Source of the DNA: an uncultured bacterium
GTDB lineage: Bacteria; Verrucomicrobiota; Kiritimatiellia; CAIKKV01; CAITUY01
Direction of reading: 5' to 3'
Assembly: GCA_903934155.1 (NCBI GenBank)
Contig: CAIZMS010000144.1
Location: 1 to 33,984, forward strand
DNA: 33,984 nucleotides
Both the position numbers and the translations under genes were made by a program. The notes under the pieces are model-generated. The model ran no database searches, was not told the DNA's origin, and saw only the letters and a program-made list of their open reading frames with translations. Within the stretch, counting starts at the first letter, position 1. Every line of letters begins with the position of its first letter. Shown one piece after another: positions 4,812 through 24,337 of this stretch.

Positions 4812-4886
4812 TCATCGTCGCGAGGGTTTTGGTGCTGCTGGGCGGTTGTGCAACACTGGAGGCACAAGTATGGCGAAAGGTGTGGA

Positions 4887-10800: not shown

Positions 10801-11235
10801 ATGAAAAAATCAACGTTGGGTCTGCTGGTCATCCTTGCCTATGTAAATTTGCTTCAGTGCCTCTGCCGTCTGAGTCGCGGCCTGGTCTGGGCGGCGCAGT
10901 ATTTGCCCTGCCCGGGTCATCGTCTTTCCGGGTTCCTGTTTCTGGGTGTGCTTTTTTCGATTCCCGCGATTCCATTGTGTGTCGCGTTTTTGCTTCGCAA
11001 GCGGGCGCCGATCACGTATGGGGTTTCGGTGATCGTTGCCACGGTACTGTTGGCCTTGTTCCATTATCACTACGACCTCAGAGTGGATCCTGGGATCGGG
11101 TTGGTTGTGATGATACCGGCAATAGCTGCGGTTACGGGCGTGATTGCCCTTGTCACCGGTGTAGTCGAGGTGTTCGTCAGAGATCGACTCAAGGCAACAT
11201 CCGAGGCGGCCATACGTCCCCCGCCAATCCCCTAA
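10801..11235 (+). CDS. Small integral membrane protein (144 aa, about 4 predicted TM helices), unknown function
   Basis: ATG 10801 is preceded by GAGGAGG (10788-10794). The protein is dominated by hydrophobic segments (LGLLVILAYVNLL, FLFLGVLFSIPAIPLCVAFLL, GVSVIVATVLLALF, IGLVVMIPAIAAVTGVIALVTGVV). GC3 is visibly lower than in flanking genes. Confidence 0.7.
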   Translation: MKKSTLGLLVILAYVNLLQCLCRLSRGLVWAAQYLPCPGHRLSGFLFLGVLFSIPAIPLCVAFLLRKRAPITYGVSVIVATVLLALFHYHYDLRVDPGIGLVVMIPAIAAVTGVIALVTGVVEVFVRDRLKATSEAAIRPPPIP

Positions 11236-11236
11236 A

Positions 11237-11265
11237 TTTTTACGCAGTTTTTACAGAGTTTTTAC
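11237..11265 (+). promoter_or_regulatory. Three TTTTTAC boxes phased at exactly 11 bp (candidate OmpR-type regulator site or phased T-tract bend)
   Basis: TTTTTAC occurs at 11237-11243, 11248-11254 and 11259-11265 (AATTTTTACGC AGTTTTTACAG AGTTTTTACTT). The array starts 2 nt after the stop of the small membrane protein gene and about 170 nt upstream of the STN-kinase-regulator operon. Confidence 0.35.
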
Positions 11266-11432
11266 TTCAGCTTCACCCGCCCCGCCTCTGTGCCCGTCAT
11301 AGTGGCACCATGACAGGTTGCACGACGTATGTTTCCTTGGAACAGGAAGGAGGGGTCGAACCACAGTAGCAAGTGAATTGGCAGTCGTTCTGGATGTGTG
11401 TTACTAATATTAATTCTGACAGGAGAGATCTC

Positions 11433-12203
11433 ATGAGAATAGACAGTGGCGAATTGAGGCGGAAGATGTTGATTGGCCTGGCCCTGATGTCGGCCGGAGC
11501 GCGACTCGGAGCGGCCGAGGGTGAAAAATCGGCCGATCCCTTTGTGAAGGGGAACAAGCCGGCGGTGATGGCTTCCCAAGTCACGGGGGGCGCCAATGAG
11601 GGGAAACAAGGGGTTGAGCGGTTGAGGGAAATTTACATCCCGACCATTGAATTCAGGGAAGCCCGCATAGAGGATGCGATCGAGTTTCTCAGGAACGTGT
11701 TGCTGAAGAATGATCCGAAAAAAGTTGGCGTAAACATTGTTTTGAACTTGCAGGGTGCGAAGCCCCCGGCCATCACGTTCTCGGCAAGAAATATCAGCCT
11801 GTTTCATGCTTTCAAGATCATCACTTCGGTGGCCGGGCTGAAGTATGAAGTCGAAGACAACATTGTGATCATCAGTAGGAATGAGCCGGTCAGCCAGGAT
11901 GAGGCGGTGGCACGGGAGAAGCCGGTCGGGATCGAAAGGCTGGAGAAGATCATCATTCCGGAACTGGCGCTGAGGCAAGCCAACATTGAGGATGTGGTCG
12001 AGTTCCTCAGAAAAGTATCTGTTGAGAATGATCCGCAAAAGGTCGGTGTTACGATTGTTTTGAACTTGCAGGGCGAAAAGCCTCCGCTTATTACGTTCTC
12101 GGCGAAGCAGATTAGCTTGTTCGATGCATTCAGGATCATCACCAAGGTGGCCGGGCTGAAATATCAGCTCGACGATAACATTGTGACAATCAGCAGGGAA
12201 TAG
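11433..12203 (+). CDS. Periplasmic protein made of two tandem secretin-N0/STN-like modules
   Basis: ATG 11433 follows AGGAGA (11421-11426). Signal peptide MRIDSGELRRKMLIGLALMSAGARLGAAEG. Two 90-aa modules (nt 11610-11879 and 11928-12197) share 61/90 identical residues by my hand alignment. Their pattern (IPxIEFRxAxIEDxIEFLR...VGVNIVLNLQG..PPITFSA.NISLF.AF.IIT.VAGLKY...DNIV.ISR) resembles secretin/TonB short N-terminal (STN) or secretin N0 domains. The family call comes from memory of the pattern only. Confidence 0.75.
   Translation: MRIDSGELRRKMLIGLALMSAGARLGAAEGEKSADPFVKGNKPAVMASQVTGGANEGKQGVERLREIYIPTIEFREARIEDAIEFLRNVLLKNDPKKVGVNIVLNLQGAKPPAITFSARNISLFHAFKIITSVAGLKYEVEDNIVIISRNEPVSQDEAVAREKPVGIERLEKIIIPELALRQANIEDVVEFLRKVSVENDPQKVGVTIVLNLQGEKPPLITFSAKQISLFDAFRIITKVAGLKYQLDDNIVTISRE
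11610..12197 (+). repeat. Intragenic tandem duplication (two ~270-nt modules, period 318 nt)
   Basis: GVERLREIYIPTIEFREARIEDAIEFLRNVLLKNDPKKVGVNIVLNLQGAKPPAITFSARNISLFHAFKIITSVAGLKYEVEDNIVIISR versus GIERLEKIIIPELALRQANIEDVVEFLRKVSVENDPQKVGVTIVLNLQGEKPPLITFSAKQISLFDAFRIITKVAGLKYQLDDNIVTISR. Confidence 0.9.
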
Positions 12204-12252
12204 CCGGTTGCGATCGGAAGCGAGGCGCAATAAGAGGGCGGTTGAAACGGGC

Positions 12253-13836
12253 ATGCGGTCATACTCTCCACAGATCGTGTTGGCGTTGCTGGTCGCGGCG
12301 GCTGTCGTCATTTTTGTCGGCGGCAGCCGCTTGTCCCAGCGGCAGGAAAAGGTCCGTGTCGAGCGTGACCGCGAGCCGTTCCGCTTGTTCGCCCTGTCCC
12401 TGCAGGGGGAACTGAACCGGTTGGAGCGGCTGTATGAGTCGCATTTGTGCCGCATCGCGCGGAATATGCCGGTTGAGGACTGCGTCAAGATCATCCCGGC
12501 CTGCAATTGGCTTTCGGGGTTGAAGCAGGTGTCGGTGTTGCCGGTCCGGTCCGAAAGCCCCGTGGCGCCGTTGCATGTCATGATCGATCCGGTCGCGGGC
12601 GAAGGGGTGCCGCGACCGGCCTTCCTGGGGATGGAGCGTGACGAGGGGCTCGGGATTCCTGTGGTCGTTCTGCCGGACGCCGTCCGACAGGCGGAGGTCC
12701 ATGATTCCGGCTGGATTGACCAACCCGGCAGTCCGCCCCTGTTCTGGTACCGCCGGTCTGAGGAGGCCTGCATTGTGATGGTGGTGAAGCGGGAGGTCGT
12801 CGTGGACTGCATGAACCAGTGGATGCGCGAGTGGGTCAAGCGTCATTATGTGCCGATGGATACGGACACCGGCGGCGAAAGCATCATGGGGCCCGGCAAC
12901 TCCCTGCTGGCGGGGTTCGTCGCCGGCTCGCGGGAACTGGAGCGCGCCCCGGATTTTGTCCTCCCGCTAAACCAGCGCTTTGCCTCCTGGCAACTGCTTT
13001 CATGGGACGGTTGGCGGATGCGGGCGTACAGTCATGTCCCGACGGTAGCGGGTTCCGCGGCGCTCGCGGTGCTGGTCGCCCTGATCGGGGCCGGCATTTT
13101 CGCCCAGCAGCGCCGCGAGTTGAAGCTGGCCGAACACCGGGTCTCCTTCATCAACCGGGTCTCCCATGAGTTGCGCGCGCCGCTGACCAATATGCTCCTG
13201 AACATTGATCTCGCCGCCGATACGCTGGAGAACCGCGGCGGCGAAGGGGCCCGCCGCCTGGATCGGGTCCGGGAGGAGGGGCGCAGGCTCAGCCGCCTGA
13301 TTGACAATGTCCTGACCTTTTCGCGCCACGAACAGGGACGGCTTGAACTCCATCCCCGGACTTGTATTCCGGTGGATATTATCGACGCCGTTGTCGCGCA
13401 GTTCGCGGCCGCGCTCGAGCGGCGATCCATCCGTGTGGAGGTCGAAGGCGGGAGCCGGCAGCCCTGTGTCCTCGATCCGGATGCCTTTGCGCAGATTTTG
13501 ACGAATCTGGTCTCGAATGTTGAGAAGTTCGCGGCAGGGGGCGGTTACCTCGGCGTGCGTGCGCGGCTCGAGGAAGGGCGCCTGCTGGTTACGGTGCGGG
13601 ATCGGGGGCGGGGTATTCCGGCCGACGATGAGGATCGAATCTTTCGCGCGTTTCATCGCCTTCATGATGAGACCCGTGAAGGCGCCACGGGAACGGGGCT
13701 CGGGTTGGCCATTGCCCGTGAATTGGCTGAACGGATGGGGGGCATCCTGCGCCTGCTTCCTTCCGATGCCGGGGCCGTCTTTGAGCTGGCGATCCCGTGC
13801 ACGTCGGTTCCGGAAAGGGAGGAGTCTGCGGTATGA
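12253..13836 (+). CDS. Sensor histidine kinase (two TM helices flanking a ~260-aa periplasmic domain; HisKA + HATPase_c)
   Basis: ATG 12253 (the track ORF starts at TTG 12208). TM1 is IVLALLVAAAVVIFVGG and TM2 is VAGSAALAVLVALIGAGIFA. The H-box is FINRVSHELRAPLTNML (His codon 13165-13167). The N/G boxes are LVSNVEKFA, RDRGRGIP and GTGLGLAIARELAERMGG. Confidence 0.9.
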   Translation: MRSYSPQIVLALLVAAAVVIFVGGSRLSQRQEKVRVERDREPFRLFALSLQGELNRLERLYESHLCRIARNMPVEDCVKIIPACNWLSGLKQVSVLPVRSESPVAPLHVMIDPVAGEGVPRPAFLGMERDEGLGIPVVVLPDAVRQAEVHDSGWIDQPGSPPLFWYRRSEEACIVMVVKREVVVDCMNQWMREWVKRHYVPMDTDTGGESIMGPGNSLLAGFVAGSRELERAPDFVLPLNQRFASWQLLSWDGWRMRAYSHVPTVAGSAALAVLVALIGAGIFAQQRRELKLAEHRVSFINRVSHELRAPLTNMLLNIDLAADTLENRGGEGARRLDRVREEGRRLSRLIDNVLTFSRHEQGRLELHPRTCIPVDIIDAVVAQFAAALERRSIRVEVEGGSRQPCVLDPDAFAQILTNLVSNVEKFAAGGGYLGVRARLEEGRLLVTVRDRGRGIPADDEDRIFRAFHRLHDETREGATGTGLGLAIARELAERMGGILRLLPSDAGAVFELAIPCTSVPEREESAV

Positions 13837-14522
13837 TGACGATTCTGATTGCGGAAGACGATCCCGTGACCTTGGATGCCTTGGCGGCGTGCCTGCAGTC
13901 CGCTGGCTATCGTGCCATCCAGGCCCGCGATGGAGCCGAGGCTCTAAAACTCTGGAAAAAACACAAGCCAGATTTATGCTGTCTGGACATCATGATGCCG
14001 AAGGTGGACGGATACGAGGTGTGCCGCCAGATACGGGAGGAAAACAAGACTATCCCGGTTCTCTTCCTGTCGGCGAAGTCGGAGGAGATTGACGTGGTGG
14101 TCGGCTTGAAACTGGGGGCGGATGATTTTATCCGCAAGCCGTTCGGGAAACATGAATTGCTGGCCCGCATCGACTCGATCCTCCGCCGTTCCTCGGCAAG
14201 CGGGGCCAAGGGGCGGAGCACGTTCTTCGCGATGGGCGATCTTGTGGTCTATCCCCATGAATTGCGGGCCGAGCGGCAGGGCAAGACGATCGACTTGTCG
14301 CCCCGGGAAGTCACGATTCTTGAATTGTTGCACGAGCGCGCGGGCGAGGTGGTGCGCCGGGATGACCTGCTGAACCGGTGTTGGGGTCTCGATTACTTCC
14401 CCGAGTCGAGAACCCTTGATCAGCATATTTCCAAGCTGCGGCACCGGATTGAGGATGATCCGGACAATCCTGTTCTCATTGAAACCATCCGAGGCGCAGG
14501 CTATCGCTTCAAGCGCCGGTAA
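13833..14522 (+). CDS. OmpR/PhoB-family response regulator (receiver + winged-helix DNA-binding domain)
   Basis: ATG 13833 overlaps the kinase stop (ATGA) and follows GGGAGGAG. Receiver motifs are ILIAEDDP, DLCCLDIMMPKVDGYEV and LSAKSEE. The C-terminal winged-helix signature is LSPREVTILELL...LDQHISKLRHRIE...IETIRGAGYRF. Confidence 0.92.
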   Translation: MMTILIAEDDPVTLDALAACLQSAGYRAIQARDGAEALKLWKKHKPDLCCLDIMMPKVDGYEVCRQIREENKTIPVLFLSAKSEEIDVVVGLKLGADDFIRKPFGKHELLARIDSILRRSSASGAKGRSTFFAMGDLVVYPHELRAERQGKTIDLSPREVTILELLHERAGEVVRRDDLLNRCWGLDYFPESRTLDQHISKLRHRIEDDPDNPVLIETIRGAGYRFKRR

Positions 14523-14538: not shown

Positions 14539-14676
14539 GTTCTCTCTGCCTTACCTAGACCTCCGGGCGCCCCAGGCGTAATAATGGGGCATGACGTATT
14601 CTGATGTCCCAAGCCTGCGGCCGTAGTGCCGAGCAAGGCTGAACTCTCCAGCGCAAGACGGAAAGGACTGTATCGA

Positions 14677-17295
14677 ATGAAGATCATGACATGGATGCTT
14701 GCGGCCGTTTGGTGTTTCACCACAACGGTGGCAGTTGCTGCGCAACTAGACAAACCCTTGATCACCATTGACAAGCAGGCCGTCAAGATTGAGGTGATCC
14801 GCTCAGGCGCAATTCTCGAAATCCGGCCCGTTTCGGACACGATCGTCCGGGTGACCTGTCGCCCCAAGGGTGCGCCGGAACGAAAGCCAAGCCTGATTGT
14901 GAACAATCCTTTGGATCCCTTTACTGGTTGGGACTGTTCCGAGTCGGCTGACGTGCTCGAAATCCGCACCGCCAAGCTGATCGTCGAGTACTCGAAGGGC
15001 GATGACGCCATTCGTTTCCTCCGCAAGGACACGGGTGAACTCATTCTGGGGGAAAAGCCGGGCGACGGGCGGTCCTTCGTCGATACCGCCGTCGAGCAGA
15101 CGTTCCTGTGCGGAGCCGACGAGGTGCTCGGCGGGTTGGGTCAGCAGACGGACGGCGCGATGAATTTCCGCGGGCGATTCGCGCATCTCTGCCAGTACAA
15201 CATTATCAAGGCCATTCCGGTCCTGGTCTCCAGCAGGGGTTACGGTATTTTATGGGACAACTGTTCGCTGACGGAAGTCAACCGCCGGAAGAGTCCGGTG
15301 CCGCTAGAGTTCCATCCCTATACCAAGACATGGGGCGGCACCTTCACGCCGCGGGAGACCGGCCAGCATGTCTTCGTGCTCGAGAAACTGAACCGCAACA
15401 TTCCCATGACCACGGAAAAAGTGAGCGTCCGGGTTGACGGGAAGGAGATTATCGCGCGGGAATGTCCCTGGCATCCCAACTATTACTCGGGAACCGTGGT
15501 GTTGGAAAAGGACAGGCCCTGCAAAATCATGGCGACAGGATCCATCCGCTTGTTTTACCAGCCGCCCTCCCTGACGGAGACGACCTCGATCTGGTCGGAA
15601 GTGGGCGAGGGCATCGACTATTATTTCATGTACGGCCCGCAACTCGACGGCGTGATCGCGGGATACCGGAACCTGACCGGGGCCGCCCCCCTGTTCCCCA
15701 AGTGGGCCTACGGGTTCTGGCAGAGCCGGGAGCGCTATACCACGGGCGAGGAGCTTGTTGCCATCGTGGATGAATATCGCAAGCGCAACCATCCGCTCGA
15801 CGTCATCGTGCAGGATTGGCAGTACTGGCGGGACTATGGCTGGAATGCCCTGAAGGTGCATCCGGACTACGCCCGCGACATGAAGGCCATCGTCGGGCGG
15901 CTGCATGACCGGCATGCGCGCGTGCTGTTTTCTGTCTGGCCCAACTTCGGGTCGGAACCCGCGAACGAGGCCCATGCGGAGTTCAAGGAGAAGGGGTACC
16001 TGCTCGACGATTCGGTGCTGGGCGACTACATCGGCAACTACCAGGCGGCCCTCCAGGGCATGCAGAAGAACTTTTCGGATTTCTTCAAGCCCGGGGTGGG
16101 GGATGCCTTCTGGAAGCGGATGAAGCAGGGGCTTTTCGACGCCGGGATTGACGGCTGGTGGCTGGACGCCAACGAGCCCAATCTCGCCAGTATCCAGGGG
16201 GTGTTCCACCTCTACCAGACCGCCGCAGGCCCCGCCGCCGCGGTTCTCAATGCCTATCCCCTGGTGCAGACCCGGAGCATCTACGAAAACCAGCGCAAGG
16301 AAACCTCGGCGAAACGGGTGTGCCTGCTTTCGCGAAGCGGCTTTGCCGGGCAGCAGCGCTACGCCGCGGCGGTGTGGAGCGGGGACACCTATGGCTCGTG
16401 GGCGGTGCTCAAGTGGAATATTGCCGGCGGCATCAATTACTGCCTCTCGGGTTTGCCGTACTGGGGCACCGACATCGGCGGGTTCTTTGGAGGGGACCCC
16501 GACAGCCCCGCCTTTCGCGAGTTGTACGCCCGCTGGTTTCAATATGGGGCGTTTTGTCCCATTTTTCGAGCCCATGGAACCGGCAGCAAGCGGGAGGTCT
16601 GGCAGTTCGGTCCCGAATCCGAGGCGATCCAGCACAAATATCTGGTCCTTCGCTATCGCCTGATGCCTTACATCTACAGCGTGGCATGGAAAGTCACCCG
16701 GGATCACTCTACGATGCTGCGGGGGCTCGTGCTGGACTTCCCCCGCGATGCCAAGGCCTGTACCGTGGCCGACCAGTTCATGTTCGGGCCGGCGTTGCTG
16801 GTCTGTCCCGTTACGGAACCCGGTGCCCGCGAAAGACCCGTGTACCTGCCGGCGGGCACGGGCTGGTATGATTTCTGGACCGGGGCTTATCACCAGGGCG
16901 GGACGACCCTCACCGCCAAGGCCCCGCTCGACCAAATTCCGCTTTTCGTTAGGGCCGGATCCATCGTGGTGATGGGGCCGGAGATGCAGTATACCTCCGA
17001 AAAGCAGGCGGATCCCCTCGAGGTCAGGGTCTATGCCGGCCAGGATGCCGCCTTCACGGTGTATGAAGATGAGGGCGACAACTACGGGTATGAGCAAGGG
17101 ATATACGCGGAGATTCCGATCCAGTGGCGCCAAGGCGACAAGACGTTGACCCTCGGGGGGCGGACAGGCCGCTTCCCCGGAATGCTGGAGCGGCGCACGA
17201 TCAAGGTGAAATGGATTGGCGTGCCCGGCAAGGATAGCGGGATGTGTGTGGATGTCGCCTATACCGGCGAGGGCGTTTGTGTGAAGGGGGAATAA
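14677..17295 (+). CDS. Glycoside hydrolase family 31-like enzyme (alpha-glucosidase/alpha-xylosidase type), secreted
   Basis: ATG 14677 gives the signal peptide MKIMTWMLAAVWCFTTTVAVAAQ. GH31-type motifs are KWAYGFWQSRERY, PLDVIVQDWQYW, GIDGWWLDANEP (nucleophile region, about 16155-16178), AAAVWSGDTYGSW and FCPIFRAHG. Confidence 0.88.
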   Translation: MKIMTWMLAAVWCFTTTVAVAAQLDKPLITIDKQAVKIEVIRSGAILEIRPVSDTIVRVTCRPKGAPERKPSLIVNNPLDPFTGWDCSESADVLEIRTAKLIVEYSKGDDAIRFLRKDTGELILGEKPGDGRSFVDTAVEQTFLCGADEVLGGLGQQTDGAMNFRGRFAHLCQYNIIKAIPVLVSSRGYGILWDNCSLTEVNRRKSPVPLEFHPYTKTWGGTFTPRETGQHVFVLEKLNRNIPMTTEKVSVRVDGKEIIARECPWHPNYYSGTVVLEKDRPCKIMATGSIRLFYQPPSLTETTSIWSEVGEGIDYYFMYGPQLDGVIAGYRNLTGAAPLFPKWAYGFWQSRERYTTGEELVAIVDEYRKRNHPLDVIVQDWQYWRDYGWNALKVHPDYARDMKAIVGRLHDRHARVLFSVWPNFGSEPANEAHAEFKEKGYLLDDSVLGDYIGNYQAALQGMQKNFSDFFKPGVGDAFWKRMKQGLFDAGIDGWWLDANEPNLASIQGVFHLYQTAAGPAAAVLNAYPLVQTRSIYENQRKETSAKRVCLLSRSGFAGQQRYAAAVWSGDTYGSWAVLKWNIAGGINYCLSGLPYWGTDIGGFFGGDPDSPAFRELYARWFQYGAFCPIFRAHGTGSKREVWQFGPESEAIQHKYLVLRYRLMPYIYSVAWKVTRDHSTMLRGLVLDFPRDAKACTVADQFMFGPALLVCPVTEPGARERPVYLPAGTGWYDFWTGAYHQGGTTLTAKAPLDQIPLFVRAGSIVVMGPEMQYTSEKQADPLEVRVYAGQDAAFTVYEDEGDNYGYEQGIYAEIPIQWRQGDKTLTLGGRTGRFPGMLERRTIKVKWIGVPGKDSGMCVDVAYTGEGVCVKGE

Positions 17296-17327
17296 ATCCA
17301 TGAGTCAGGATGAGGAGGCAGAACTGT

Positions 17328-18620
17328 ATGAAGTTTGAATGTCCGAAATGTAGCCAACGTCTTTCGGTTGCGGCGACCGCCGCAGGGCTCATGGTCCGGT
17401 GTCCGTCATGCGATAACCGGGTCAAGGTGCCGCTGGCGTCAAAGGGGGATCGGCGCGCCTGGAAGGAAACAGACCCGACGAATCCCAATCCGTTCCTCAG
17501 TCTGGGGATCACGCTGGTTGTGCTTCTGCTGTGGTTCCTGCTTCTGTTGCCGTTCGTCCCTCCGGCAGGCACGCCGATTTCCTCATACAGCACGATGCAG
17601 TTCCTGTCATCGTTGTTCTACAAGCATTTCCTGGTCAGTTTCATCAACACGATGTTCTTCGTGTGGGCCATGTCGATCATCTTCCTCAAGCACCTGAAGA
17701 TCCGGCACCAGAAGGCCGCGATGATGCTCGACGTCCTGCCGCCGCAGCTCGGCAAGGAGATCGACGGCACGAACGTGGGGGCCTTTATCGACCATGTCTA
17801 CTCGTTGCCCCACAAGTTGCGCGACAGCCTGATGGTCAACCGGATCCGGAAGGCGTTGGAGCTGTTCGAGATTCGGCAGAACGTGGCCGAGGTGCGGGAG
17901 ATGATGGCGAGCCAATCAGAGATCGATAGCGGTCGCATCAGCGGCAGTTTCACCCTGTTGCGCGCCTTTCTGTGGGGGATCCCGCTGCTGGGATTTATCG
18001 GGACGGTCATCGGCTTGTCGCATGCCATCGGCGGCATGAGCTTCGGCAACGTTGAAGATGTCAGCAAGATCGTGGGATCGATCAACAATGTGACTAGCGG
18101 CCTGGGGACGGCCTTCGACGCCACCCTGCTGGGCCTCGTGCTGGCCCTGATCCTGAACTTTCCGCTCAACGCGCTGGCCAAACAGGAGGATGACAACCTG
18201 CAGACGATTGACGCCTTCTGCAACGAGGTGCTGCTGCCACGCCTCAAGGATACGACGTCGGCGCTGACGATCGATTCGAGCGCCGTGGCCAACGCGCTGG
18301 CGCTTGCCATTGCCGGATCGCAGGAGAAATTCATTGTGCAGCTCAACCAACTCGCCCAGCAGATGGGAGGCTATGCCGCGGAGATGGAGAAGCGCATGGC
18401 CACATTCCAGGAGACTGTGACCGAGGAGATTGTGTCCCGGAACGCCGAAATGCGCGAGCAGAATCAGTTGGCGTTAAATGGTTCGCTGGAGCAGGTGTCC
18501 AGGTACATCGGCGGGTTGGAGGCGGGCATTGGAGGCCTCAACAAGGTGCTCAAGGAGCTGGGCGAGCGGCAGGTGGTGGTCCAGGCACCCCCGCGGCGAC
18601 ACTGGTTCTGGCGTTCCTGA
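17328..18620 (+). CDS. MotA/TolQ/ExbB-family ion-channel (stator A-type) protein with an N-terminal CxxC...CxxC zinc ribbon and a ~150-aa C-terminal coiled-coil tail
   Basis: ATG 17328 follows GAGGAGG (17312-17318). The zinc ribbon is MKFECPKCSQRLSV...VRCPSCDNRVKVP (MJ0042-like). Four TM helices have MotA-like topology. The channel signature is LLRAFLWGIPLLGFIGTVIGL ... GLGTAFDATLLGLVLALILNFPLN. The tail is rich in heptad-like Q/E/A/L sequence (QEKFIVQLNQLAQQMGGYAAEMEKRMATFQETVTEEIV...). Confidence 0.85.
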   Translation: MKFECPKCSQRLSVAATAAGLMVRCPSCDNRVKVPLASKGDRRAWKETDPTNPNPFLSLGITLVVLLLWFLLLLPFVPPAGTPISSYSTMQFLSSLFYKHFLVSFINTMFFVWAMSIIFLKHLKIRHQKAAMMLDVLPPQLGKEIDGTNVGAFIDHVYSLPHKLRDSLMVNRIRKALELFEIRQNVAEVREMMASQSEIDSGRISGSFTLLRAFLWGIPLLGFIGTVIGLSHAIGGMSFGNVEDVSKIVGSINNVTSGLGTAFDATLLGLVLALILNFPLNALAKQEDDNLQTIDAFCNEVLLPRLKDTTSALTIDSSAVANALALAIAGSQEKFIVQLNQLAQQMGGYAAEMEKRMATFQETVTEEIVSRNAEMREQNQLALNGSLEQVSRYIGGLEAGIGGLNKVLKELGERQVVVQAPPRRHWFWRS

Positions 18621-18662
18621 AGGCGGTCAGGTCCGGACGGTTGAACCCGAAACACAGCACCC

Positions 18663-19514
18663 ATGGCCAAAAAACGACAAGGCAAACATGACGAGGTGAT
18701 GCTCATCCCGTTTTTGGACATCCTCTGCTCGCTGATCGGGGTTCTGATTTTGATTGTCGTGGTCATGAGCGTTTCCCAGATGCAGCGGGTCGATGGGCGT
18801 TCCAAGGAAGAGGTGGCCCGGGCGCAGCGGTATCAGACCCTGCTGCAACAGCTGAAGGACGAGGAGAAAGCGGCGCTGGAACGGCAGGCGAAGGTCGCGG
18901 AATTGGAGCGCAAGCGCAACTCCGAGCAACGTCTGCGGATGGAACTGCAGGAGAAGCAGCGGAAACTGGCTGAGATGCGCCAGCAGCTGCAGCGGTCAGC
19001 GGACACCGCCCAGGCGGACAAGCTCAAGACCCTGGAGCTCCGCAAGCGGATCGAGTCCCGCGCCCAGGAGAGTCTGGCGTTGGCCCAGTCGCTTAAATTC
19101 ACGCAGGCCGAAATCCTGGCGCTCCGGAAGTTGATCGACGAGCGGCGGAAACTGCCGGAGATCAAGCCGAAGGTCCAGGTCATGCGGTCCACCGGCAGCG
19201 GCACGGTCGGGAACCAGCGCCTGTTTTTTGTCGAGGTGAACGGGATCGCCATCAAGGTCCACCAGGAGAAGGGGAAGCCCATCAACGTCCCCATCGATAA
19301 CGTGAAAGGGGACAAGGACTTCAACGCGTTCCTTGAAAAGGTCAAGAATACGGGCAACGCCTCCCTGTTGTTCCTGGTCCGGAAGGGGGGCGGCGTCACA
19401 TACCTGCGCGCGGCAGGCTGGGCCGAACAGCAGTATCAACTGAACACCGGAAAAATCCCCATACCTGGCGAGGGGCCTCTCGACCTGAGTCTTTTTGCCG
19501 GAGAGAGGTACTGA
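18663..19514 (+). CDS. ExbD/TolR-like single-pass membrane protein with a ~125-aa coiled-coil spacer (stator B-type, paralog 1)
   Basis: The N-terminus MAKKRQGKHDEVMLIPFLDILCSLIGVLILIVVVMS has a basic head and then a TM helix with Asp19 (GAC 18717-18719), as in ExbD/TolR. Residues ~45-170 (nt ~18795-19172) are highly charged and heptad-like (ALERQAKVAELERKRNSEQRLRMELQEKQRKLAEMRQQLQ...). The C-terminal ~110 aa look like an alpha/beta domain (LLFLVRKGGGVTYLRAAGWAEQQ). No clear SD precedes the start, so the start is less certain. Confidence 0.75.
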   Translation: MAKKRQGKHDEVMLIPFLDILCSLIGVLILIVVVMSVSQMQRVDGRSKEEVARAQRYQTLLQQLKDEEKAALERQAKVAELERKRNSEQRLRMELQEKQRKLAEMRQQLQRSADTAQADKLKTLELRKRIESRAQESLALAQSLKFTQAEILALRKLIDERRKLPEIKPKVQVMRSTGSGTVGNQRLFFVEVNGIAIKVHQEKGKPINVPIDNVKGDKDFNAFLEKVKNTGNASLLFLVRKGGGVTYLRAAGWAEQQYQLNTGKIPIPGEGPLDLSLFAGERY

Positions 19515-19528
19515 GCGGATAACGCCCC

Positions 19529-20602
19529 ATGAGCAAGAAACGGCATGCCGAGGAACAGGAGTTGCCCTTCGTGGCGCTGATGGACACGATGACCAACGTG
19601 GTCGGCGTGCTCGTCATCGTGATGGTCATGATCGGGATCACTCTGGCCCGGGCTGCCAGCAAGGTGCTGTCGTCATTGCCTCCCGCCACCGAGGCCCAGA
19701 TCGTGGAGGTCATGTCGCGGCTCGAACGGCTGCGCGCCGAGCAGGCGCCCCTCCAGGCGAAACTGGCGGCCCCGGCCGACGTCCGGACCGATCCGAAGGC
19801 GATGGAGCGGGTCGACCAGGAACTCGCCGATCTTGAACGGCAGATGAAAAACCGGGGCCTCAAGCCCCAGGACGATGCCGAACTCATCCGCGACCTGGCC
19901 CGGAAGGACGAGGAACTCGTGAAACTCAAAGCGGACGCGTCGAAAATCACGGAGGAGCGGAATAATCTCAAGGTCCAGTTGGATCAGACACCCATACCGC
20001 TTACTCCGCCCGCCAAGGTCGTGCGCATTCCGGCCAGCCGGCCGATCCCCAAGAATGCCAGGATTGAGCAGGTCGTGGTCACGAAGGACGGCGCCTACTG
20101 GGTTGACGAGGAGGCCCTGACCCGTCAGTTCCTAGGGGAGTTCAGCCTGGCCGGGAGCCGCGAGGCGATCTTCAGTCAGGTGAAGCGCGGCAACAAGCGG
20201 GTCACGATTTATGATGCGGTCAAACTCAAGAACTATTTTGAGAAACGAAAGCTCAAAACGCGCGGGTTCGATGTGACCATGGGCTTTGAAGAGTGGTCCC
20301 GCACCTGGCCGGTGTTGACGTTGCGCGCCTCCGGCGCGCCTGTGGCCGACCTGGGGGGGATTCTGTGGCGGATCAAGCATAAGCCGAACGCGGTCGTGAT
20401 GTTCCGCGTCACCGGCGATGGGTACGACCACTATCTGGATGCGCGGGAGGTGTGTGACAAGCTGGGCATTCCCGCCGGGTGGGAGTACGCCTTCGCGCCC
20501 GAGGCCAAGTGTTTGATCAATGAAATCGAGACGAACCGGCCCGTGCCTGCGGCGAAAGACAAGTCCGACGAAATCAAGCCGCCCGCGGCTAAAATCGACT
20601 GA
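19529..20602 (+). CDS. ExbD/TolR-like single-pass membrane protein with a ~100-aa coiled-coil spacer and a larger C-terminal domain (stator B-type, paralog 2)
   Basis: The N-terminus MSKKRHAEEQELPFVALMDTMTNVVGVLVIVMVMIG has the same layout and again Asp19 (GAC 19583-19585). The charged helical segment spans ~residues 48-152 (nt ~19670-19984). The C-terminal ~200 aa include AVVMFRVTGDGYDHYLDAREVCDKLGIPAGWE, reminiscent of the ExbD periplasmic domain. The tail is Lys/Pro-rich. Confidence 0.78.
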   Translation: MSKKRHAEEQELPFVALMDTMTNVVGVLVIVMVMIGITLARAASKVLSSLPPATEAQIVEVMSRLERLRAEQAPLQAKLAAPADVRTDPKAMERVDQELADLERQMKNRGLKPQDDAELIRDLARKDEELVKLKADASKITEERNNLKVQLDQTPIPLTPPAKVVRIPASRPIPKNARIEQVVVTKDGAYWVDEEALTRQFLGEFSLAGSREAIFSQVKRGNKRVTIYDAVKLKNYFEKRKLKTRGFDVTMGFEEWSRTWPVLTLRASGAPVADLGGILWRIKHKPNAVVMFRVTGDGYDHYLDAREVCDKLGIPAGWEYAFAPEAKCLINEIETNRPVPAAKDKSDEIKPPAAKID

Positions 20603-20621: not shown

Positions 20622-22784
20622 ATGAATCTTATCAGCGTGTTCAAGTGTGCTCTCCTGACCGGACTGCTGGTTCCGGCGGGATGTCAGAACGAAAACGGGA
20701 GGGGTGTCCCAAAGGGGGACGAAGCGGTTTGGCAAGGTAACGCGGGCGGGATGTTTTCGCGACAGGACATCATCGTCAAAACCGAGGCGGGCAAGACCTT
20801 TCATTTCCCCGTCAAGATCGTCGGCAACAGCATTACCAGCGAGCTGGGCCCTTTCGGCCTCTATACCGAGGAACTCGTTGTCAAAGACAACACGACCACC
20901 TTGGGGAAAGTGTCCTTGAAGATTGCTGGCGACGAGGGGTTCATCGTGCAGTGCCCGTTTGCCATGCCTAAACCCCGCGGCAAGCCCTATTTTATGATCC
21001 CGGGCTTCCTGTACGGCTCCAATAACCTGAAAGGGTCCGACGGGAAACAGCCGAAATTCGACTATGGCGGGAAAGTTTCCTATCCCAACAGTTCCCTGTG
21101 GTACATCCGGGCCGACCGCAGTACTCACCCGGGCGTCATCACGGTGGTCAACAACCGGGTGTCGATGGTCGGGATCGGGCATCGCATGATCGGCCATGAG
21201 CAGGAGCCTGCCGATGTGTGGTCGCCCCGCTATGTGTTCAATGGGGTGATGCTCGACAGTTCGGATCCTGCTGAGGATCGGGTCGGGTTTCAGTTGGGGT
21301 ACGAAAATGCGCCCGGCCGCTATTCCTGGACTTGGAACGATTCCCGGATTCCCCGCGAAAACGCCTATCGGTTCGGCTGGATCAGGAACGCCAAGGGCAA
21401 GACGCTGACCACGCAGACCTTCTATTTCACGGATCGCGCCTCGTCGGTGAAGGCGTATGGAAAGGCGCTCGAAGCCTATTATCACGCCTTCCACCAGCCC
21501 CCGTTGAAACGCTCCCAACGGCTTGAAGCGCTCGAGAAGATAGGAACCTTTTCAGCCACGGAAGGCTACAACCAGGATCACAAGTTCTTCTTCCTGTACG
21601 ACGGGCCGGGCGGCAACATGGTGGGGGACATCGCCTGGACCGGCGGCATGCAGGTCGCCTATCCGTTGCTGGCCGCCGGGATGAGGGTCAACAACCCCTT
21701 GTTCATCGCCAGGGCCACGGACTTTATTGATAACTTGAGCACCCAGGTGATGAATCCGAAGGCGGGCCTCCTGAACGAGGAATTCCGGGCCGAAAAGGGG
21801 GGCGCGGGGGCCTCGACGGGTTCAGGCTCCGTACGGGGGAAATGGAACGTCACGGGATGGTGGGGAATCGGTGTGAACGCAAACTGTTTTGACATGGGCG
21901 ATCACCCGCTGCACAGCGCTTACCTCAACGGCCAGGCAGCGTATTATCTTCTCAAAGCCTATGAGCGTAACGGATGTAAGAAGGAACGCTGGCTGAAAAC
22001 GGCGCAAACCGTCCTGGACACGGTTCTCAAGAGCCAGAATACGGCAGGGGCTTACGGCGTGTTCTTCGATCCCGAAACCGGCAAAGCGGTGGACTACGAT
22101 GGGTTCCAGAGCTGCTGGTTCCTCCCCGGAATGGCGCTACTGGCCAGGCTCACCCAGGCTCCGCAATACCGCGAAAGCGCCACGAAGGCCGCCCGCTACT
22201 ACGATTCGCTCTATGCCACGGGCGAACTGTTCAATACGCCGATGGATACCCATAAGGCGGTTGACCAGGAAGGCAACCTTTCGTTCATTGTGGCCACGGC
22301 GGAACTTCACAAGCTGACCCATGACCGGGTATACCTGGATATGGCCCGCGATGCGCTCGACTGGGAGTTCTCCTGGAAATTCTGTTACAACAAGGCCTAT
22401 TCGCACGACCCGCTGCGCCGCTTGAACTGGTCGACCTGTGGCGGTTCGATCACCAGTACCCACAATTGCACCATTCATCAGATGGGAACCCTGGTGGCGG
22501 GCGATATTCATTACCTCTACACGCAAGTGAAGGACCCCTACATCGCCTCCCGCCTCAAGGATACCTGCGTGTGGGGGCTGGGAACCTACAACCGTGTTGA
22601 CAACGATTTCGGCTTTGGCAAGGTCGGCCATGCCACTGAGCAATTCACCTATACCGATGGCCTGGTGCTCGCCAAGCGGTCATTCTGGGACGGCGGTGTC
22701 TGGGAAGTCAACTTGACGTGGGCCTCCGCCTGTGTCTTGAATTGCGTCGCCGATGATATCCCTGATGAGTTTTTCGGGGAGTAA
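20622..22784 (+). CDS. Lipoprotein of unknown family (720 aa; N-terminal beta-rich region and a helical C-terminal half, possibly an alpha/alpha-toroid-type carbohydrate-active enzyme)
   Basis: ATG 20622 follows GAGGAGAGG (20604-20612). The lipobox-like signal is MNLISVFKCALLTGLLVPAG|C. The C-terminal half has helix-repeat character with aromatic/acidic motifs (HSAYLNGQAAYYLLKAYE, FLPGMALLARL, YLDMARDALDWEFSW). I recognise no diagnostic family motif. Confidence 0.7.
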   Translation: MNLISVFKCALLTGLLVPAGCQNENGRGVPKGDEAVWQGNAGGMFSRQDIIVKTEAGKTFHFPVKIVGNSITSELGPFGLYTEELVVKDNTTTLGKVSLKIAGDEGFIVQCPFAMPKPRGKPYFMIPGFLYGSNNLKGSDGKQPKFDYGGKVSYPNSSLWYIRADRSTHPGVITVVNNRVSMVGIGHRMIGHEQEPADVWSPRYVFNGVMLDSSDPAEDRVGFQLGYENAPGRYSWTWNDSRIPRENAYRFGWIRNAKGKTLTTQTFYFTDRASSVKAYGKALEAYYHAFHQPPLKRSQRLEALEKIGTFSATEGYNQDHKFFFLYDGPGGNMVGDIAWTGGMQVAYPLLAAGMRVNNPLFIARATDFIDNLSTQVMNPKAGLLNEEFRAEKGGAGASTGSGSVRGKWNVTGWWGIGVNANCFDMGDHPLHSAYLNGQAAYYLLKAYERNGCKKERWLKTAQTVLDTVLKSQNTAGAYGVFFDPETGKAVDYDGFQSCWFLPGMALLARLTQAPQYRESATKAARYYDSLYATGELFNTPMDTHKAVDQEGNLSFIVATAELHKLTHDRVYLDMARDALDWEFSWKFCYNKAYSHDPLRRLNWSTCGGSITSTHNCTIHQMGTLVAGDIHYLYTQVKDPYIASRLKDTCVWGLGTYNRVDNDFGFGKVGHATEQFTYTDGLVLAKRSFWDGGVWEVNLTWASACVLNCVADDIPDEFFGE

Positions 22785-22795
22785 GGGATTATTTG

Positions 22796-24337
22796 ATGTA
22801 TATGAAACAATGCCTTGTTGATATTGTCATGAGGACGGCCCTGATCGCCGCCTTGTCCGCTGGTAGGGTGGATGGGGCTGTGAACGGTGGGGCCTGCGCG
22901 TCGGTGCAGTCCACCACTGGCGCGCTAACCAATGGGCCCGTCCCCGGTTGGGAAGTGCCGTTGCGCCGCGATCTGGAGGCGATGGCGACACGGCTGGCCG
23001 GCACCTTAAAGCCGTGGACGGTCCCGGACTGCACGGTGCGGGTGCAGGATCATGGCGCCATCGGCGACGGCGTGACCGTCAACACCAAAGCCCTCCAAAA
23101 GGCGATTGATGCCTGTGCGGCCCAGGGCGGCGGGGTGGTCCTTTTTTCGAAAGGGGACTTCGTGACCGGCACCCTGGACCTCAGATCCGGAGTGATGATC
23201 GAGGTGGCCGGGGGGGCCAGGATCTTGGGCAGTACCCGGCTGGCGGATTATCCGGAGCGCATCGCCCGGCGGCGGACGGTGATGGATACCAATATGGGGA
23301 TGAATCAATCGCTGTTCTTCGCCGAGGGGTGCGAACGCATCGGGTTCCGCGGCAGGGGCGTGATTGACGGGCGCGGGACGAAACAGAATTTTCCGGGCGA
23401 ACAGACCGTTGTCTCGACGCCCGGCCGTCCCTTCCTGATCCGCGTGCTGGATAGCCGGAACATCCTGCTCGACGGCATCACGCTCAAGGATTCCCCCTGC
23501 TGGATGCAAAATTACCTCAATTGTGAAGACCTTATCTTCCAGGGCATTACGGTGGAGAACCAGGCCAATTGGAACAATGACGGCCTCGACATCGACGGGT
23601 GCCGGAACGTGATCGTTCGTGACTGTTTCCTGAATTCGGAGGATGATGCCCTGTGCTTCAAGGGCGCGAGCTTGAAACCGACCGAGAACGTTCTGGTGGA
23701 GAACTGCCGGATCTACAGTACCTGCAACGCGATCAAGTATGGGACCGATTCGCAGGGGGATTTTCGCAATGTCCTCATTCGGAACGTCGAGGCGGGCGGA
23801 CCGGCACCAACGATGCGCGCCCTGACCCCGCGGCTGGCCATATCCGGCATCGCGCTGGAGATCGTGGATGGAGGGACGCTGGAGAATGTCATGCTGTCCG
23901 GCATCCGGCTTGTGCGGTGCGAGTCCCCGGTTTTCCTGCGGCTGGGGGATCGCGGTCGCGTGATGCCCGGGATGCCGCGCCAGGCGCCCGGCGTCTTGCG
24001 CCGCGTGATCCTCGATCACCTTACCGGTGACGCCAACGGCAAACGGGGGTCCATTATCTCGGGGATCCCCGCCGCCAGTATCTCGGATGTCGTCATGCGG
24101 AATTTTCATCTGGTCGTCGCGGGGGGGGTGGGGGCCTGGCCGCCGGGCAAGCTGATTCCGGAAAAAATCGATGCCTATCCCGACGGCTGGATGTTTGGCC
24201 CGCTGGTTCCCTCCCATGGCTTCTGGATCCGGCACGCGCGGGATGTGACTTTCAGCGGAGGCCGGGTCGTGACGGAGAAGCCGGACGCCCGTCCGGTCCT
24301 TGCCACCGGCGTGAATGTCACCAATATCTCTTGGTGA
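22796..24337 (+). CDS. Glycoside hydrolase family 28-like enzyme (polygalacturonase/rhamnogalacturonase-type right-handed beta-helix)
   Basis: Possible starts are ATG 22796, 22802 and 22829; the signal-like segment is MRTALIAALSAGRVDGAV. The N-terminal motif VQDHGAIGDGVTVNTKALQKAIDACAAQGGGVVLFSKGDFVTG and the catalytic-region motifs NNDGLDIDGCRNVIVRDCFLNSEDDALCFKG and RIYSTCNAIKYGTDS fit GH28. Confidence 0.85.
   Translation: MYMKQCLVDIVMRTALIAALSAGRVDGAVNGGACASVQSTTGALTNGPVPGWEVPLRRDLEAMATRLAGTLKPWTVPDCTVRVQDHGAIGDGVTVNTKALQKAIDACAAQGGGVVLFSKGDFVTGTLDLRSGVMIEVAGGARILGSTRLADYPERIARRRTVMDTNMGMNQSLFFAEGCERIGFRGRGVIDGRGTKQNFPGEQTVVSTPGRPFLIRVLDSRNILLDGITLKDSPCWMQNYLNCEDLIFQGITVENQANWNNDGLDIDGCRNVIVRDCFLNSEDDALCFKGASLKPTENVLVENCRIYSTCNAIKYGTDSQGDFRNVLIRNVEAGGPAPTMRALTPRLAISGIALEIVDGGTLENVMLSGIRLVRCESPVFLRLGDRGRVMPGMPRQAPGVLRRVILDHLTGDANGKRGSIISGIPAASISDVVMRNFHLVVAGGVGAWPPGKLIPEKIDAYPDGWMFGPLVPSHGFWIRHARDVTFSGGRVVTEKPDARPVLATGVNVTNISW

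Follow-up and report, generated by a model that had tools for sequence, protein, structure and literature searches.

A conserved three-gene module of Verrucomicrobiota pairs a MotA/ExbB-family channel subunit with two coiled-coil Asp-helix proteins

Introduction

Three consecutive genes, hereafter A, B1 and B2, lie between glycoside hydrolase genes on a contig of an uncultured Kiritimatiellia bacterium, of which a stretch of 33,984 nucleotides (the window) was analysed. A preliminary description had read them as a stator-like ion-motor module wired into a glycoside-hydrolase operon, and had taken the context to point to glycan capture or import, or to enzyme or adhesin export. The locus thus raises two questions, namely whether the triad has the makings of a MotA/ExbB-type motor, and whether its neighbours tell what such a motor drives.

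Results

Layout of the locus

A, B1 and B2 are closely packed open reading frames (ORFs) on the + strand, with the coordinates and spacing initially reported, and their neighbours (GH31, lipoprotein and GH28 genes) are likewise present as described:

GH31 gene, 14626..17295, + strand: upstream neighbour in this contig only, outside the conserved module (Pfam GH31 domains)
Gene A, 17328..18620, + strand: 430 aa, MotA/ExbB/TolQ-family channel subunit (Pfam PF01618, hhalign against TolQ)
Gene B1, 18663..19514, + strand: 283 aa, bitopic Asp-helix coiled-coil protein (AF2, family alignment, Foldseek, hhalign)
Gene B2, 19529..20602, + strand: 357 aa, paralogue of B1 (AF2, family alignment, hhalign)
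Genes for a 720-aa putative lipoprotein and a GH28 enzyme, 20622..24337, + strand: downstream neighbours in this contig only, outside the conserved module (Pfam)

The gaps measure 32 nt from the GH31 stop (17295) to the ATG of A (17328), 42 nt between A and B1, 14 nt between B1 and B2, and 19 nt from B2 to the next gene; given such short distances, co-transcription of the triad with its flanking genes in this contig is plausible. The 720-aa putative lipoprotein shows weak Pfam similarity to GH88/GH76. The start of A at 17328 is supported by a GGAGG located 9 nt 5' of the ATG and by the homologues of A, which begin with MKFxCPxC. The GC3 of the three ORFs (0.82) is in the range of real genes of this contig, and the existence of homologues with E-values down to 1e-275 establishes A, B1 and B2 as real, conserved genes.

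Gene A encodes a MotA/ExbB-family channel subunit

The four transmembrane (TM) helices and the MotA_ExbB signature attributed to A were both borne out. Hydropathy analysis delineates four TM segments (53-85, 100-123, 206-236 and 257-285), and the profile search that the preliminary description had proposed places A above the cut-off of Pfam MotA_ExbB PF01618 (46.6 bits versus 22.9; residues 173-292), a domain carried by all the homologues listed; in total, homologues of A number at least 1006. Aligned with E. coli TolQ by hhalign (E=3.7e-5), T226 of A falls on TolQ T145/ExbB T148 and T266 on TolQ T178/ExbB T181, both threonines being invariant in the A family alignment. Judged by these alignments, A truly belongs to the channel subunits of the MotA/ExbB family and keeps both lumen threonines of TolQ/ExbB. 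Among the defence-library and NCBIfam models, the best matches were ZorA2 (36 bits) and tolQ (20.5 bits), both far under their cut-offs.

Outside the channel core, A carries an N-terminal cytoplasmic Zn-ribbon of the CxxC...CxxC type (residues 1-33), scoring below threshold against Pfam Zn_ribbon_4 (23.5 versus 30.3), a conserved cytoplasmic loop (residues 124-205), and a C-terminal tail of about 145 aa past TM4 that ends in a conserved GEKQ-VV..basic..WF motif and differs in length among orthologues. Going by the four-TM topology, this tail is predicted to be cytoplasmic.

Genes B1 and B2 encode paralogous proteins with an Asp helix, a long stalk and a globular head

As initially reported, each B protein crosses the membrane once, through an N-terminal TM helix that bears an aspartate at position 19 (B1, residues 15-43, PFLDILCSLIG; B2, residues 14-49, PFVALMDTMTNVVG). 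This Asp19 does not vary in either family alignment, PFLD being found in 120/120 homologues of B1 and LMDT in 120/120 homologues of B2, a family of 274 clusters at 50% identity (E<=1e-30). The charged heptad-like segment and C-terminal globular domain that had been proposed for both proteins find their counterparts in the AF2 monomer models, where long helices are followed by globular domains. In B1 (pLDDT 85) one unbroken helix (48-162; about 115 aa, about 17 nm if extended) leads through a Gly/Ser hinge into a C-terminal beta-beta-beta-alpha-beta-alpha-beta head (186-266), which ends in a conserved GKLPIPG.G..DL motif. In B2 (pLDDT 81) the helical stalk is segmented (55-80, 89-108 and 116-153), the alpha/beta head is two-lobed (178-253 and 261-329), with the second lobe matching the B1 head, and a Pro-rich tail closes the protein with a near-invariant [L/I/V]-D carboxy terminus (118/120 homologues). 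Although sequence identity is low, the B proteins keep the length of their spacer, which measures 147 aa for 71/99 homologues of B1, alongside variants of +7 and +11, and 136-141 aa for those of B2. The two heads match each other in hhalign (probability 92%, E=5e-7) and, on this profile comparison, B1 and B2 are paralogues.

The designation of the B proteins as ExbD/TolR-like stands in part only. In its favour, the B1 N-terminus aligns with the TolR/ExbD Asp helix (hhalign E=6e-4, over 18 columns only), and the B1 model resembles TolR 5by4 in Foldseek (probability 0.95, TMt 0.57, E=0.055); ExbD 8pek reaches TMt 0.52 (E=0.45) against the B models, and both structures are among the weak fold matches of B2. 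Against it, the Pfam ExbD model PF02472, whose use on these proteins had been suggested, did not attain its gathering score of 25.4 bits with full-length B1 (10.5 bits, E=0.64) and did not match B2, nor did any of nine constructs from which the coiled coil had been deleted match at E<=1. No significant hhalign match links the B heads to TolR, and no PDB entry matches the B1 or B2 model at E<=1e-3 in Foldseek. The models weakly suggest a TolR/ExbD-like topology for the B heads.

The triad is widespread, and its order is fixed

Relatives of A occur in at least 537 species genomes; the survey covered 88 loci, made up of the best 80 from these genomes and 8 related ones. The best 80 all belong to Verrucomicrobiota, and A is present in 80 of them, B1 in 76 and B2 in 73, the order A-B1-B2 being fixed in every locus where the contig allows it to be seen. 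These 80 loci display an identity gradient and housekeeping synteny; beyond the triad the neighbourhood is variable and often housekeeping, as in the Prosthecobacter group, where ribBA-ribH-nusB-ftsY lies upstream. The triad is probably vertically inherited and characteristic of Verrucomicrobiota, including Kiritimatiellia. In one related lineage, B1 is truncated and sits beside an IS91-family transposase gene, which constitutes evidence against strict essentiality.

The preliminary description had distinguished the module from a housekeeping Tol/Exb system lying next to tolA, tolB, pal or tonB, and this distinction held in the survey. With single-sequence phmmer queries, which are of limited sensitivity, no match to TolA, TolB or Pal (E. 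coli queries) or to TonB was obtained within 10 kb in the 88 loci; the MotB C-terminus, used in the same way, found no match in the 88 loci or in the window. The best 80 loci contain no conserved neighbour cluster of the tolA/tolB/pal/cpoB type around the triad. Searching the window ORFs confirmed the reported absence of TonB, TolA, Pal, OmpA, flagellar, T9SS and Zorya-effector domains, and detected no TonB-dependent receptor in the window; the flanks contained no TonB-like ORF. Published work indicates that tonB frequently lies apart from exbBD in the genome (PMC12204202).

Comparison with described systems

We found no described system that matches the A-B1-B2 combination, in agreement with the view first expressed that it cannot be placed in one, and the vicinity of the triad encodes no partner of the Tol-Pal, TonB, OmpA, T9SS or Zorya kind. 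As with the genes of the 5:2 motors MotAB, ExbBD, TolQR and ZorAB, the B genes are directly downstream of A and encode a single Asp-bearing N-terminal TM helix. Comparison with individual systems revealed that (i) the triad shares with TolQ-TolR/ExbB-ExbD the Pfam family and the two lumen threonines of A, the single N-terminal TM helix of B, whose essential Asp lies within the motif (I/V)P(F/L)(L/I)D(V/I)(L/M), the gene order A then B and, by AF2 topology, perhaps the order of head elements, but differs in that A has four TM helices, as in MotA, plus the Zn-ribbon and the C-terminal tail, in that a pair of heterologous B genes takes the place of the single one, in the 100-115-aa coiled coil between TM helix and head of proteins unmatched by Pfam ExbD, and in the lack of a TolA/TonB-type transducer, TolB, Pal or TonB-dependent receptor nearby, (ii) GldL-GldM/PorL-PorM offer the architectural idea of a dimeric B-type subunit serving as a long periplasm-spanning shaft, but share no sequence or domain similarity with the triad and use another TM charge chemistry, T9SS genes being absent here and GldL/GldM matching neither A, B1 and B2 (Pfam, E<=1) nor their neighbours, (iii) ZorA-ZorB of Zorya resemble the triad in the MotA-type A subunit with a helical cytoplasmic tail after TM4 and are its best, sub-threshold, NCBIfam and PADLOC matches, whereas the tail of A is far shorter, Pfam, NCBIfam and PADLOC searches of the three proteins detected no OmpA-like peptidoglycan-binding domain (the MotB/ZorB-type anchor), ZorC, ZorD and ZorE are lacking, and the distribution is that of a core gene and not of a defence island, and (iv) AglR-AglQ-AglS, the Myxococcus gliding motor, likewise comprises one A-type and two different B-type genes, but AglQ and AglS are short, TolR-like and devoid of coiled-coil stalks, and the triad has no Glt partners here.

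A further parallel comes from the TPH-vWA and TPR-tolQ-tolR-tolR-vWA clusters of PVC bacteria and Proteobacteria (PMC12204202, section 8). In PVC bacteria, heterologous partner pairs with an Asp in the N-terminal helix are encoded beside tolQ-like genes, and the B-type subunit has been proposed to transduce force directly there; the triad shares with these clusters the PVC/Verrucomicrobia lineage, the order of a tolQ-like gene followed by such a pair, and the proposed transfer of force to the outer envelope by the B-type subunit itself. In contrast, the extension of B1 and B2 consists of a coiled coil and a TolR-like head: neither Pfam nor fold comparison gave a vWA match in either protein, the AF2 heads comprising about 80 and about 150 residues, and conserved TPR or vWA genes are likewise missing near the triad (best 80 loci; 25 downstream families listed).

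Linkage to glycoside hydrolases and other explanations

One reading of the locus couples the motor to the flanking glycoside hydrolases, so that it would energise glycan capture or import, or the export of enzymes or adhesins, across the PVC envelope. It can draw on the 32- and 19-nt gaps in this contig, with no terminator-like site between the genes, and on close relatives in which the immediate downstream gene, on the same strand, encodes a GH78 enzyme (two) or a SASA esterase (one), other GH genes also lying within 10 kb of the triad among the close relatives. The neighbourhood survey envisaged at the outset, carried out on the 88 loci, argues the other way: the GH31, lipoprotein and GH28 genes and all other window CAZymes accompany the triad in 0/80 best species loci and in 0/8 closer related loci. 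In six closer lineages the flanking CAZymes are of different families each time, or missing; a related Kiritimatiellia MAG has no CAZyme adjoining the triad, no GH family is among the 25 families listed for the immediate downstream neighbours (63 loci), and the Prosthecobacter-type context is the ribBA-ribH-nusB-ftsY string given above. As about 7 of the 20 window genes are CAZyme-like, adjacency to the triad is expected by chance. By the measure that the preliminary description had set itself, the claim of a motor wired into a glycoside-hydrolase operon fails, because the CAZyme linkage is not conserved, and the proposed output, glycan capture or import, loses its footing with it. Within the window's own clade, the gene directly downstream on the same strand encodes a carbohydrate-active enzyme in 3/5 independent lineages, and for this reason a loose link of the triad to glycan metabolism may exist there. 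We regard dedicated coupling to the flanking hydrolases as quite unlikely; the CAZyme neighbours here say little about motor function, and the flanking GH genes probably reflect a CAZyme-dense genome rather than functional coupling.

The length of the B subunits, which by AF2 and spacer lengths suffices for much of the periplasm, would also suit a drive shaft like GldLM/PorLM or AglRQS, in which a rotating B1/B2 stalk powers surface motility, a secretion system or a track of adhesins; the module is self-contained, hence its partners could be encoded elsewhere in the genome, and AglQS provides an example of a heterodimeric B pair. This appears unlikely, as no GldL, GldM, T9SS or Glt domain occurs in A, B1, B2 or the flanks, gliding or secretion genes are not conserved nearby in the best 80 loci, and in its TM chemistry, with an Asp on B and a Thr ring on A, the triad follows the MotB/ExbD/TolR type rather than the GldLM type. 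Very unlikely, in our view, is a Zorya-like module for envelope sensing or defence whose A tail relays envelope perturbation inward as the ZorA tail does: the ZorA2 (36 bits) and ZorA (27 bits) matches of A do reach into the tail (residues 218-377), which varies in length among orthologues, and ZorB1 is the best PADLOC match of B2 (E=1.8e-4), but all scores fall well short of the family cut-offs (ZorA_2, 27 versus 100; ZorA2, 9.8 versus 700), no effector of the ZorC, ZorD or ZorE type and no OmpA-type anchor accompany the triad, and its phylum-wide occurrence with housekeeping synteny and an identity gradient is unlike that of a mobile defence island. Least probable of all is that B1 and B2 are independent coiled-coil membrane proteins, for instance in division or as scaffolds, that merely adjoin a channel gene. 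The unmatched ExbD profile and the non-significant fold matches fit this idea; the fixed order A-B1-B2, an arrangement of A then B that to our knowledge defines all known 5:2 motors, and the invariant Asp at the same depth of the single N-terminal TM helix of both families, in a TolR/ExbD/MotB-like motif, do not.

Discussion

The stator-like reading of the triad is largely supported by the sequence comparisons, and what emerges is a phylum-wide variant of the MotA/ExbB-type motor, not described before, in which both partners carry long coiled-coil stalks. We consider it probable that A-B1-B2 forms an ion-driven motor of the MotA/ExbB 5:2 class that is complete in itself and passed on vertically. 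Protons would most likely be the driving ion, and the task would most likely be a general envelope function rather than a glycan-specific one. In such a motor, a pentamer of A would surround a B1/B2 heterodimer (A5:B1:B2), and the two Asp19 residues would bind protons and release them again against the Thr ring, so that A rotates relative to B. The B1/B2 coiled coil would form a periplasmic stalk of about 15-17 nm, so that the TolR-like heads and the Pro-rich, LD-terminated tail of B2 reach the peptidoglycan or the outer membrane and could there anchor or pull on a partner; the reach of TolA/TonB would thereby be built into the TolR-like subunit. On the other side of the membrane, the Zn-ribbon and helical tail of A may serve as a cytoplasmic regulatory or coupling surface.

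More tentatively, and with rather less likelihood, the triad could represent a new class of 5:2 motor, core to Verrucomicrobiota, in which the heterodimeric coiled-coil shaft of about 17 nm itself spans the periplasm, the B2 tail delivers force to the peptidoglycan or outer membrane, and the Zn-ribbon of A and its short ZorA-like tail couple to a cytoplasmic partner. If this were true, the module would be a two-sided transducer for a phylum-specific envelope function.

Organization of the locus

The window is a complete metagenomic contig of 33,984 bp, in which every plausible gene lies on the + strand. The three ORFs of the triad are present as the preliminary description had reported them, both in their coordinates and in the intergenic gaps (32 nt between the GH31 gene and A, 42 nt between A and B1, 14 nt between B1 and B2, and 19 nt between B2 and the next gene). 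Together with their immediate flanks, assigned by Pfam, they are arranged as follows:

14626-17295, + strand: GH31 gene, upstream flank of the triad
17328-18620, + strand: gene A, 430 aa
18663-19514, + strand: gene B1, 283 aa
19529-20602, + strand: gene B2, 357 aa
20622-22784, + strand: gene for a protein of 720 aa, weakly similar to GH88/GH76, downstream flank
22793-24337, + strand: GH28 gene, downstream flank

A second in-frame ATG for gene A occurs at 17310; the start at 17328 was preferred because GGAGG is found 9 nt upstream of it and homologues start with MKFxCPxC. The remainder of the window is rich in carbohydrate-active enzymes (CAZymes). Encoded there are GH97, an F5/8-type-C protein, LamG and BNR proteins, an SSF symporter, a pair of histidine kinase and response regulator, a FecR-STN protein and a PATR protein of giant size. 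Promoter and terminator scans of the window returned counts no higher than chance.

The histidine kinase (12208-13836) and response regulator (13797-14522) genes overlap by 40 nt directly upstream of the GH31 gene, with a promoter-like site at 14556-14585 between the latter two genes, and the pair (12208-14522) is a candidate for regulating the GH string locally. Just ahead of the gene for the FecR_C and STN fusion protein (11373-12203) lies an ORF of 170 aa without Pfam match (10857-11369); the two (10857-12203) may represent a sigma/anti-sigma pair adjoining the gene of a giant surface protein. The product of the latter gene (4848-10766), 1972 aa in length, contains a PATR autotransporter-type repeat as well as a bacterial Ig domain, and is likely a giant protein of the cell surface or an adhesin. 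The SSF sodium:solute symporter gene (26921-28645) is directly followed by a URO-D-family protein gene (28670-29842), an unusual pairing in a CAZyme cluster.

Gene A belongs to the MotA/ExbB superfamily

Gene A reached 46.6 bits against Pfam MotA_ExbB (cut-off 22.9), and its N-terminal Zn-ribbon match fell below the Pfam threshold. Hydropathy analysis showed four TM segments in a MotA-like topology; by this topology, the Zn-ribbon, a strongly conserved loop (residues 124-205) and the tail (residues 286-430) would be cytoplasmic. Using hhalign, gene A matched E. coli TolQ (E = 3.7e-5) and ExbB (E = 2.3e-4), with the two channel helices of these proteins aligning with GFIGTVIGL and GTAFDATLLGL, and T226 and T266, invariant among 18 sequences of the gene A family alignment, aligning to T145 and T178 of TolQ and to T148 and T181 of ExbB. 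Since every named-family score was far under its cut-off (tolQ, 20.5 against 221; MotA, 15.6 against 340; ZorA_2, 27 against 100; likewise 36 bits for PADLOC ZorA2), gene A forms a separate clade of the superfamily.

Residues 158-179 of the loop (window 17799-17864), YSLPHKLRDSLMVNRIRKALEL, align with residues 111-132 of E. coli MotA, ASYPRILADSVMLDFIVDYLRL, at an hhalign probability of 34%, which hints that the cytoplasmic domain is MotA-like, not ExbB-like. In the family alignment, some orthologues (among P0005, P0010, P0025 and P0120) carry two tandem N-terminal Zn-ribbons, and some show insertions of 30-100 aa in the cytoplasmic C-terminal tail, the length of which is variable, as it is in ZorA. 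The Zn-ribbon and the variable-length helical tail suggest an extra cytoplasmic interface.

B1 and B2 combine an Asp helix, a stalk and an alpha/beta head

B1 and B2, to which no Pfam family could be assigned, each have one N-terminal TM helix with an Asp at position 19 that is invariant in their family alignments. The surrounding motif, PFLDILCSLIG in B1 and PFVALMDTMTNVVG in B2, is kept in 120/120 homologues of each. The B1 motif is akin to VPLLDVLL of TolR and TPFIDVML of ExbD (hhalign E = 6e-4 over 18 columns), and that of B2, judged by eye, to YADFMTAMM of MotB. The AF2 models were confident (pLDDT 85 for B1 and 81 for B2); in that of B1, the TM helix (15-43) leads into a continuous helix (48-162), which a Gly/Ser hinge connects to a head of beta-beta-beta-alpha-beta-alpha-beta order. 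In that of B2, the TM helix (14-49) is followed by three helical segments that reach residue 153, then by a head with two lobes and a tail rich in Pro. The two heads are homologous to each other (hhalign probability 92%, E = 5e-7), and their topology is the one known from the periplasmic domains of TolR and ExbD.

TolR (5by4) and ExbD (8pek) recurred among the top Foldseek matches of the B models, although nothing in the PDB matched either model at E <= 1e-3. Pfam searches with constructs devoid of the coiled coil did not recover ExbD, and none of the hhalign comparisons of the B heads with E. coli TolR, ExbD and MotB was significant, a B1-TolR alignment of 100 columns yielding E = 3.7e-3 at a probability of 9%. 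With full-length B1 and B2, nothing beyond coiled-coil noise and below-threshold hits to MotB, ZorB, ExbD, HpsJ and GspM was obtained in Pfam, NCBIfam and PADLOC, and searches of PDB sequences with the B-family profiles were dominated by coiled-coil proteins and uninformative. Given the lack of a fold match at E <= 1e-3 and of a Pfam ExbD match, "ExbD/TolR-like" denotes here an analogy in structure and mechanism, weakly supported by homology, rather than an established family membership. The stator-like reading of the preliminary description is largely right, with the weak ExbD homology as its caveat. An HpsJ identity of B1 was rejected; the match of PF28006, the Pfam HpsJ model, which is precomputed on some B1 homologues, is no more than faint, and a literature search on HpsJ yielded nothing relevant.

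The stalk of both proteins is conserved in length and poorly so in sequence. Of 99 B1 homologues, 71 have 147 residues between Asp motif and hinge, and the variants commonly seen (+7 and +11) preserve the heptad or hendecad register; the B2 spacer measures 136-141 residues in nearly all homologues. Such a pattern is suggestive of a spacer or ruler. B2 homologues terminate in [L/I/V]-D in 118 of 120 cases, following a tail whose median proline content is 22%. Verrucomicrobiaceae B1 orthologues (B1 family alignment, columns 300-373; for example P0333, P0354, P0358) bear a Pro/Ala-rich C-terminal tail of 20-70 aa, reminiscent of TonB/TolA-type spacers, from which the window's B1 is free. Long B2 variants of 480-660 aa (P0423, P0456, P0464, P0486 and others) retain the Asp helix and terminal LD and contain extra helical inserts; domain fusion was rejected for them, no known Pfam domain being found inside.

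The triad is conserved independently of the neighbouring CAZyme genes

Clustering at 90% yielded at least 1006 homologues for gene A, 491 for B2 and 281 for B1, and an exhaustive profile search gave 274 B2 clusters at 50% identity (E <= 1e-30). Scanning one genome per GTDB species, a gene A relative was found in at least 537 genomes, the best 80 of which are all Verrucomicrobiota (Verrucomicrobiaceae, Akkermansiaceae, Chthoniobacteraceae) and include cultured Verrucomicrobium, Brevifollis and Prosthecobacter strains; the triad also occurs in a Kiritimatiellia MAG (P0021). By tblastn, A was present in 80, B1 in 76 and B2 in 73 of the best 80 loci, while each of the other 17 window genes was found in 0-3 of them, and all CAZymes in none. 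Clustering of the ORFs of these loci showed that the A-B1-B2 order is fixed and that any other neighbour is common to no more than 17 of them, the recurrent ones being housekeeping genes of one subclade, with ribBA, ribH, nusB and ftsY on the upstream side and a gene for a class I/II aminotransferase on the downstream side. Among 63 immediate downstream neighbours scanned with Pfam (aminotransferase, 9; UDPGP, 3; tRNA synthetases, 3), the 25 families listed comprised no glycoside hydrolase. The distribution is phylum-wide and apparently vertical.

The six close lineages (gene A identity 59-72%) likewise have only A, B1 and B2 in common with the window, and their flanks differ.

Genes flanking the triad in related lineages
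P0010, P0063: two to three GH78 genes downstream
P0019: GH29, GH43 and GH95
P0017: SASA esterase and GH27
P0005: GH115 upstream, divergent
P0021 (Kiritimatiellia): peptidase and transposase; adjoining CAZyme absent

As about one third of the genes in the regions of the close lineages are CAZyme-like, some CAZyme beside the triad is expected by chance. The linkage of triad and CAZyme genes is not conserved, and the proposal that the motor is functionally wired into a glycoside-hydrolase operon is not supported, failing the refutation test that the preliminary description itself had set. In the P0005 lineage, whose gene A is 72% identical to that of the window, the B1 ORF has just 181 aa, and the next gene, an IS91/Y2-family transposase gene, runs on the other strand; this triad (related loci L081, 11728-12273, and L082, 8597-10575) appears disrupted, which argues against strict essentiality.

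Comparison with known systems and proposed mechanism

No match to TolA, TolB, Pal, TonB or the MotB C-terminus was obtained in the stop-to-stop ORFs of the 88 loci (the best 80 plus 8 related ones) and of the window by phmmer with E. coli single-sequence queries, which are of limited sensitivity. Judged from the triad and its flanks, membership in the Tol-Pal, Ton, MotAB, Zorya and GldLM systems was rejected in each case, at least one defining feature being missing. The closest published concept is that of section 8 of PMC12204202. There, tolQ-like genes of PVC bacteria and Proteobacteria are described as standing ahead of genes for heterologous protein pairs that have an Asp helix like that of TolR; the pair proteins carry vWA domains or the clusters include TPR and vWA partners, and direct force transduction is proposed. 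The triad follows the same principle, with neither a vWA nor a TPR component. A 2025 mBio survey of MotAB homologues (PMC12505986) places the non-flagellar relatives under "generic ion transporters", part of them with unknown function; its passages covered here do not describe the triad architecture. A literature search for a described Verrucomicrobiota MotA/ExbB triad or for Akkermansia genetics yielded nothing specific.

Overall, the triad falls into a known motor class as a conserved form that has not been described so far, and a self-contained MotA/ExbB-class motor is the best-supported reading of A-B1-B2. By analogy with solved 5:2 motors, a pentamer of A would surround a B1/B2 heterodimer, and proton transfer via the Asp19 pair and the Thr ring would drive relative rotation. 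The coiled coil of B1/B2, of about 15-17 nm, would by the same analogy place the TolR-like heads, together with the Pro-rich tail ending in LD, at the peptidoglycan or outer membrane, so that the B subunits themselves would supply the reach that canonical systems owe to TolA or TonB. A general role in the envelope is favoured both by the housekeeping synteny and by a distribution that is phylum-wide and apparently vertical.

To our knowledge, ion-driven 5:2 motors are the sole bacterial route by which inner-membrane energy reaches the outer envelope or the flagellum. Their outputs comprise the flagellum, TonB, Tol-Pal, T9SS/gliding and Zorya, each of which, once characterised, opened a field. 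The triad, at present annotated as "ExbB/TolQ" plus "hypothetical protein" and nothing more, is conserved throughout a phylum of polysaccharide degraders that matter both environmentally and medically, and its predicted architecture unites the axle that bears the Asp with a stalk spanning the periplasm. Our analysis corrects the tempting, unsupported view of this motor as part of a glycan-utilisation operon; its output, once identified, would extend the catalogue of envelope energisation mechanisms and the biology of the PVC cell envelope.
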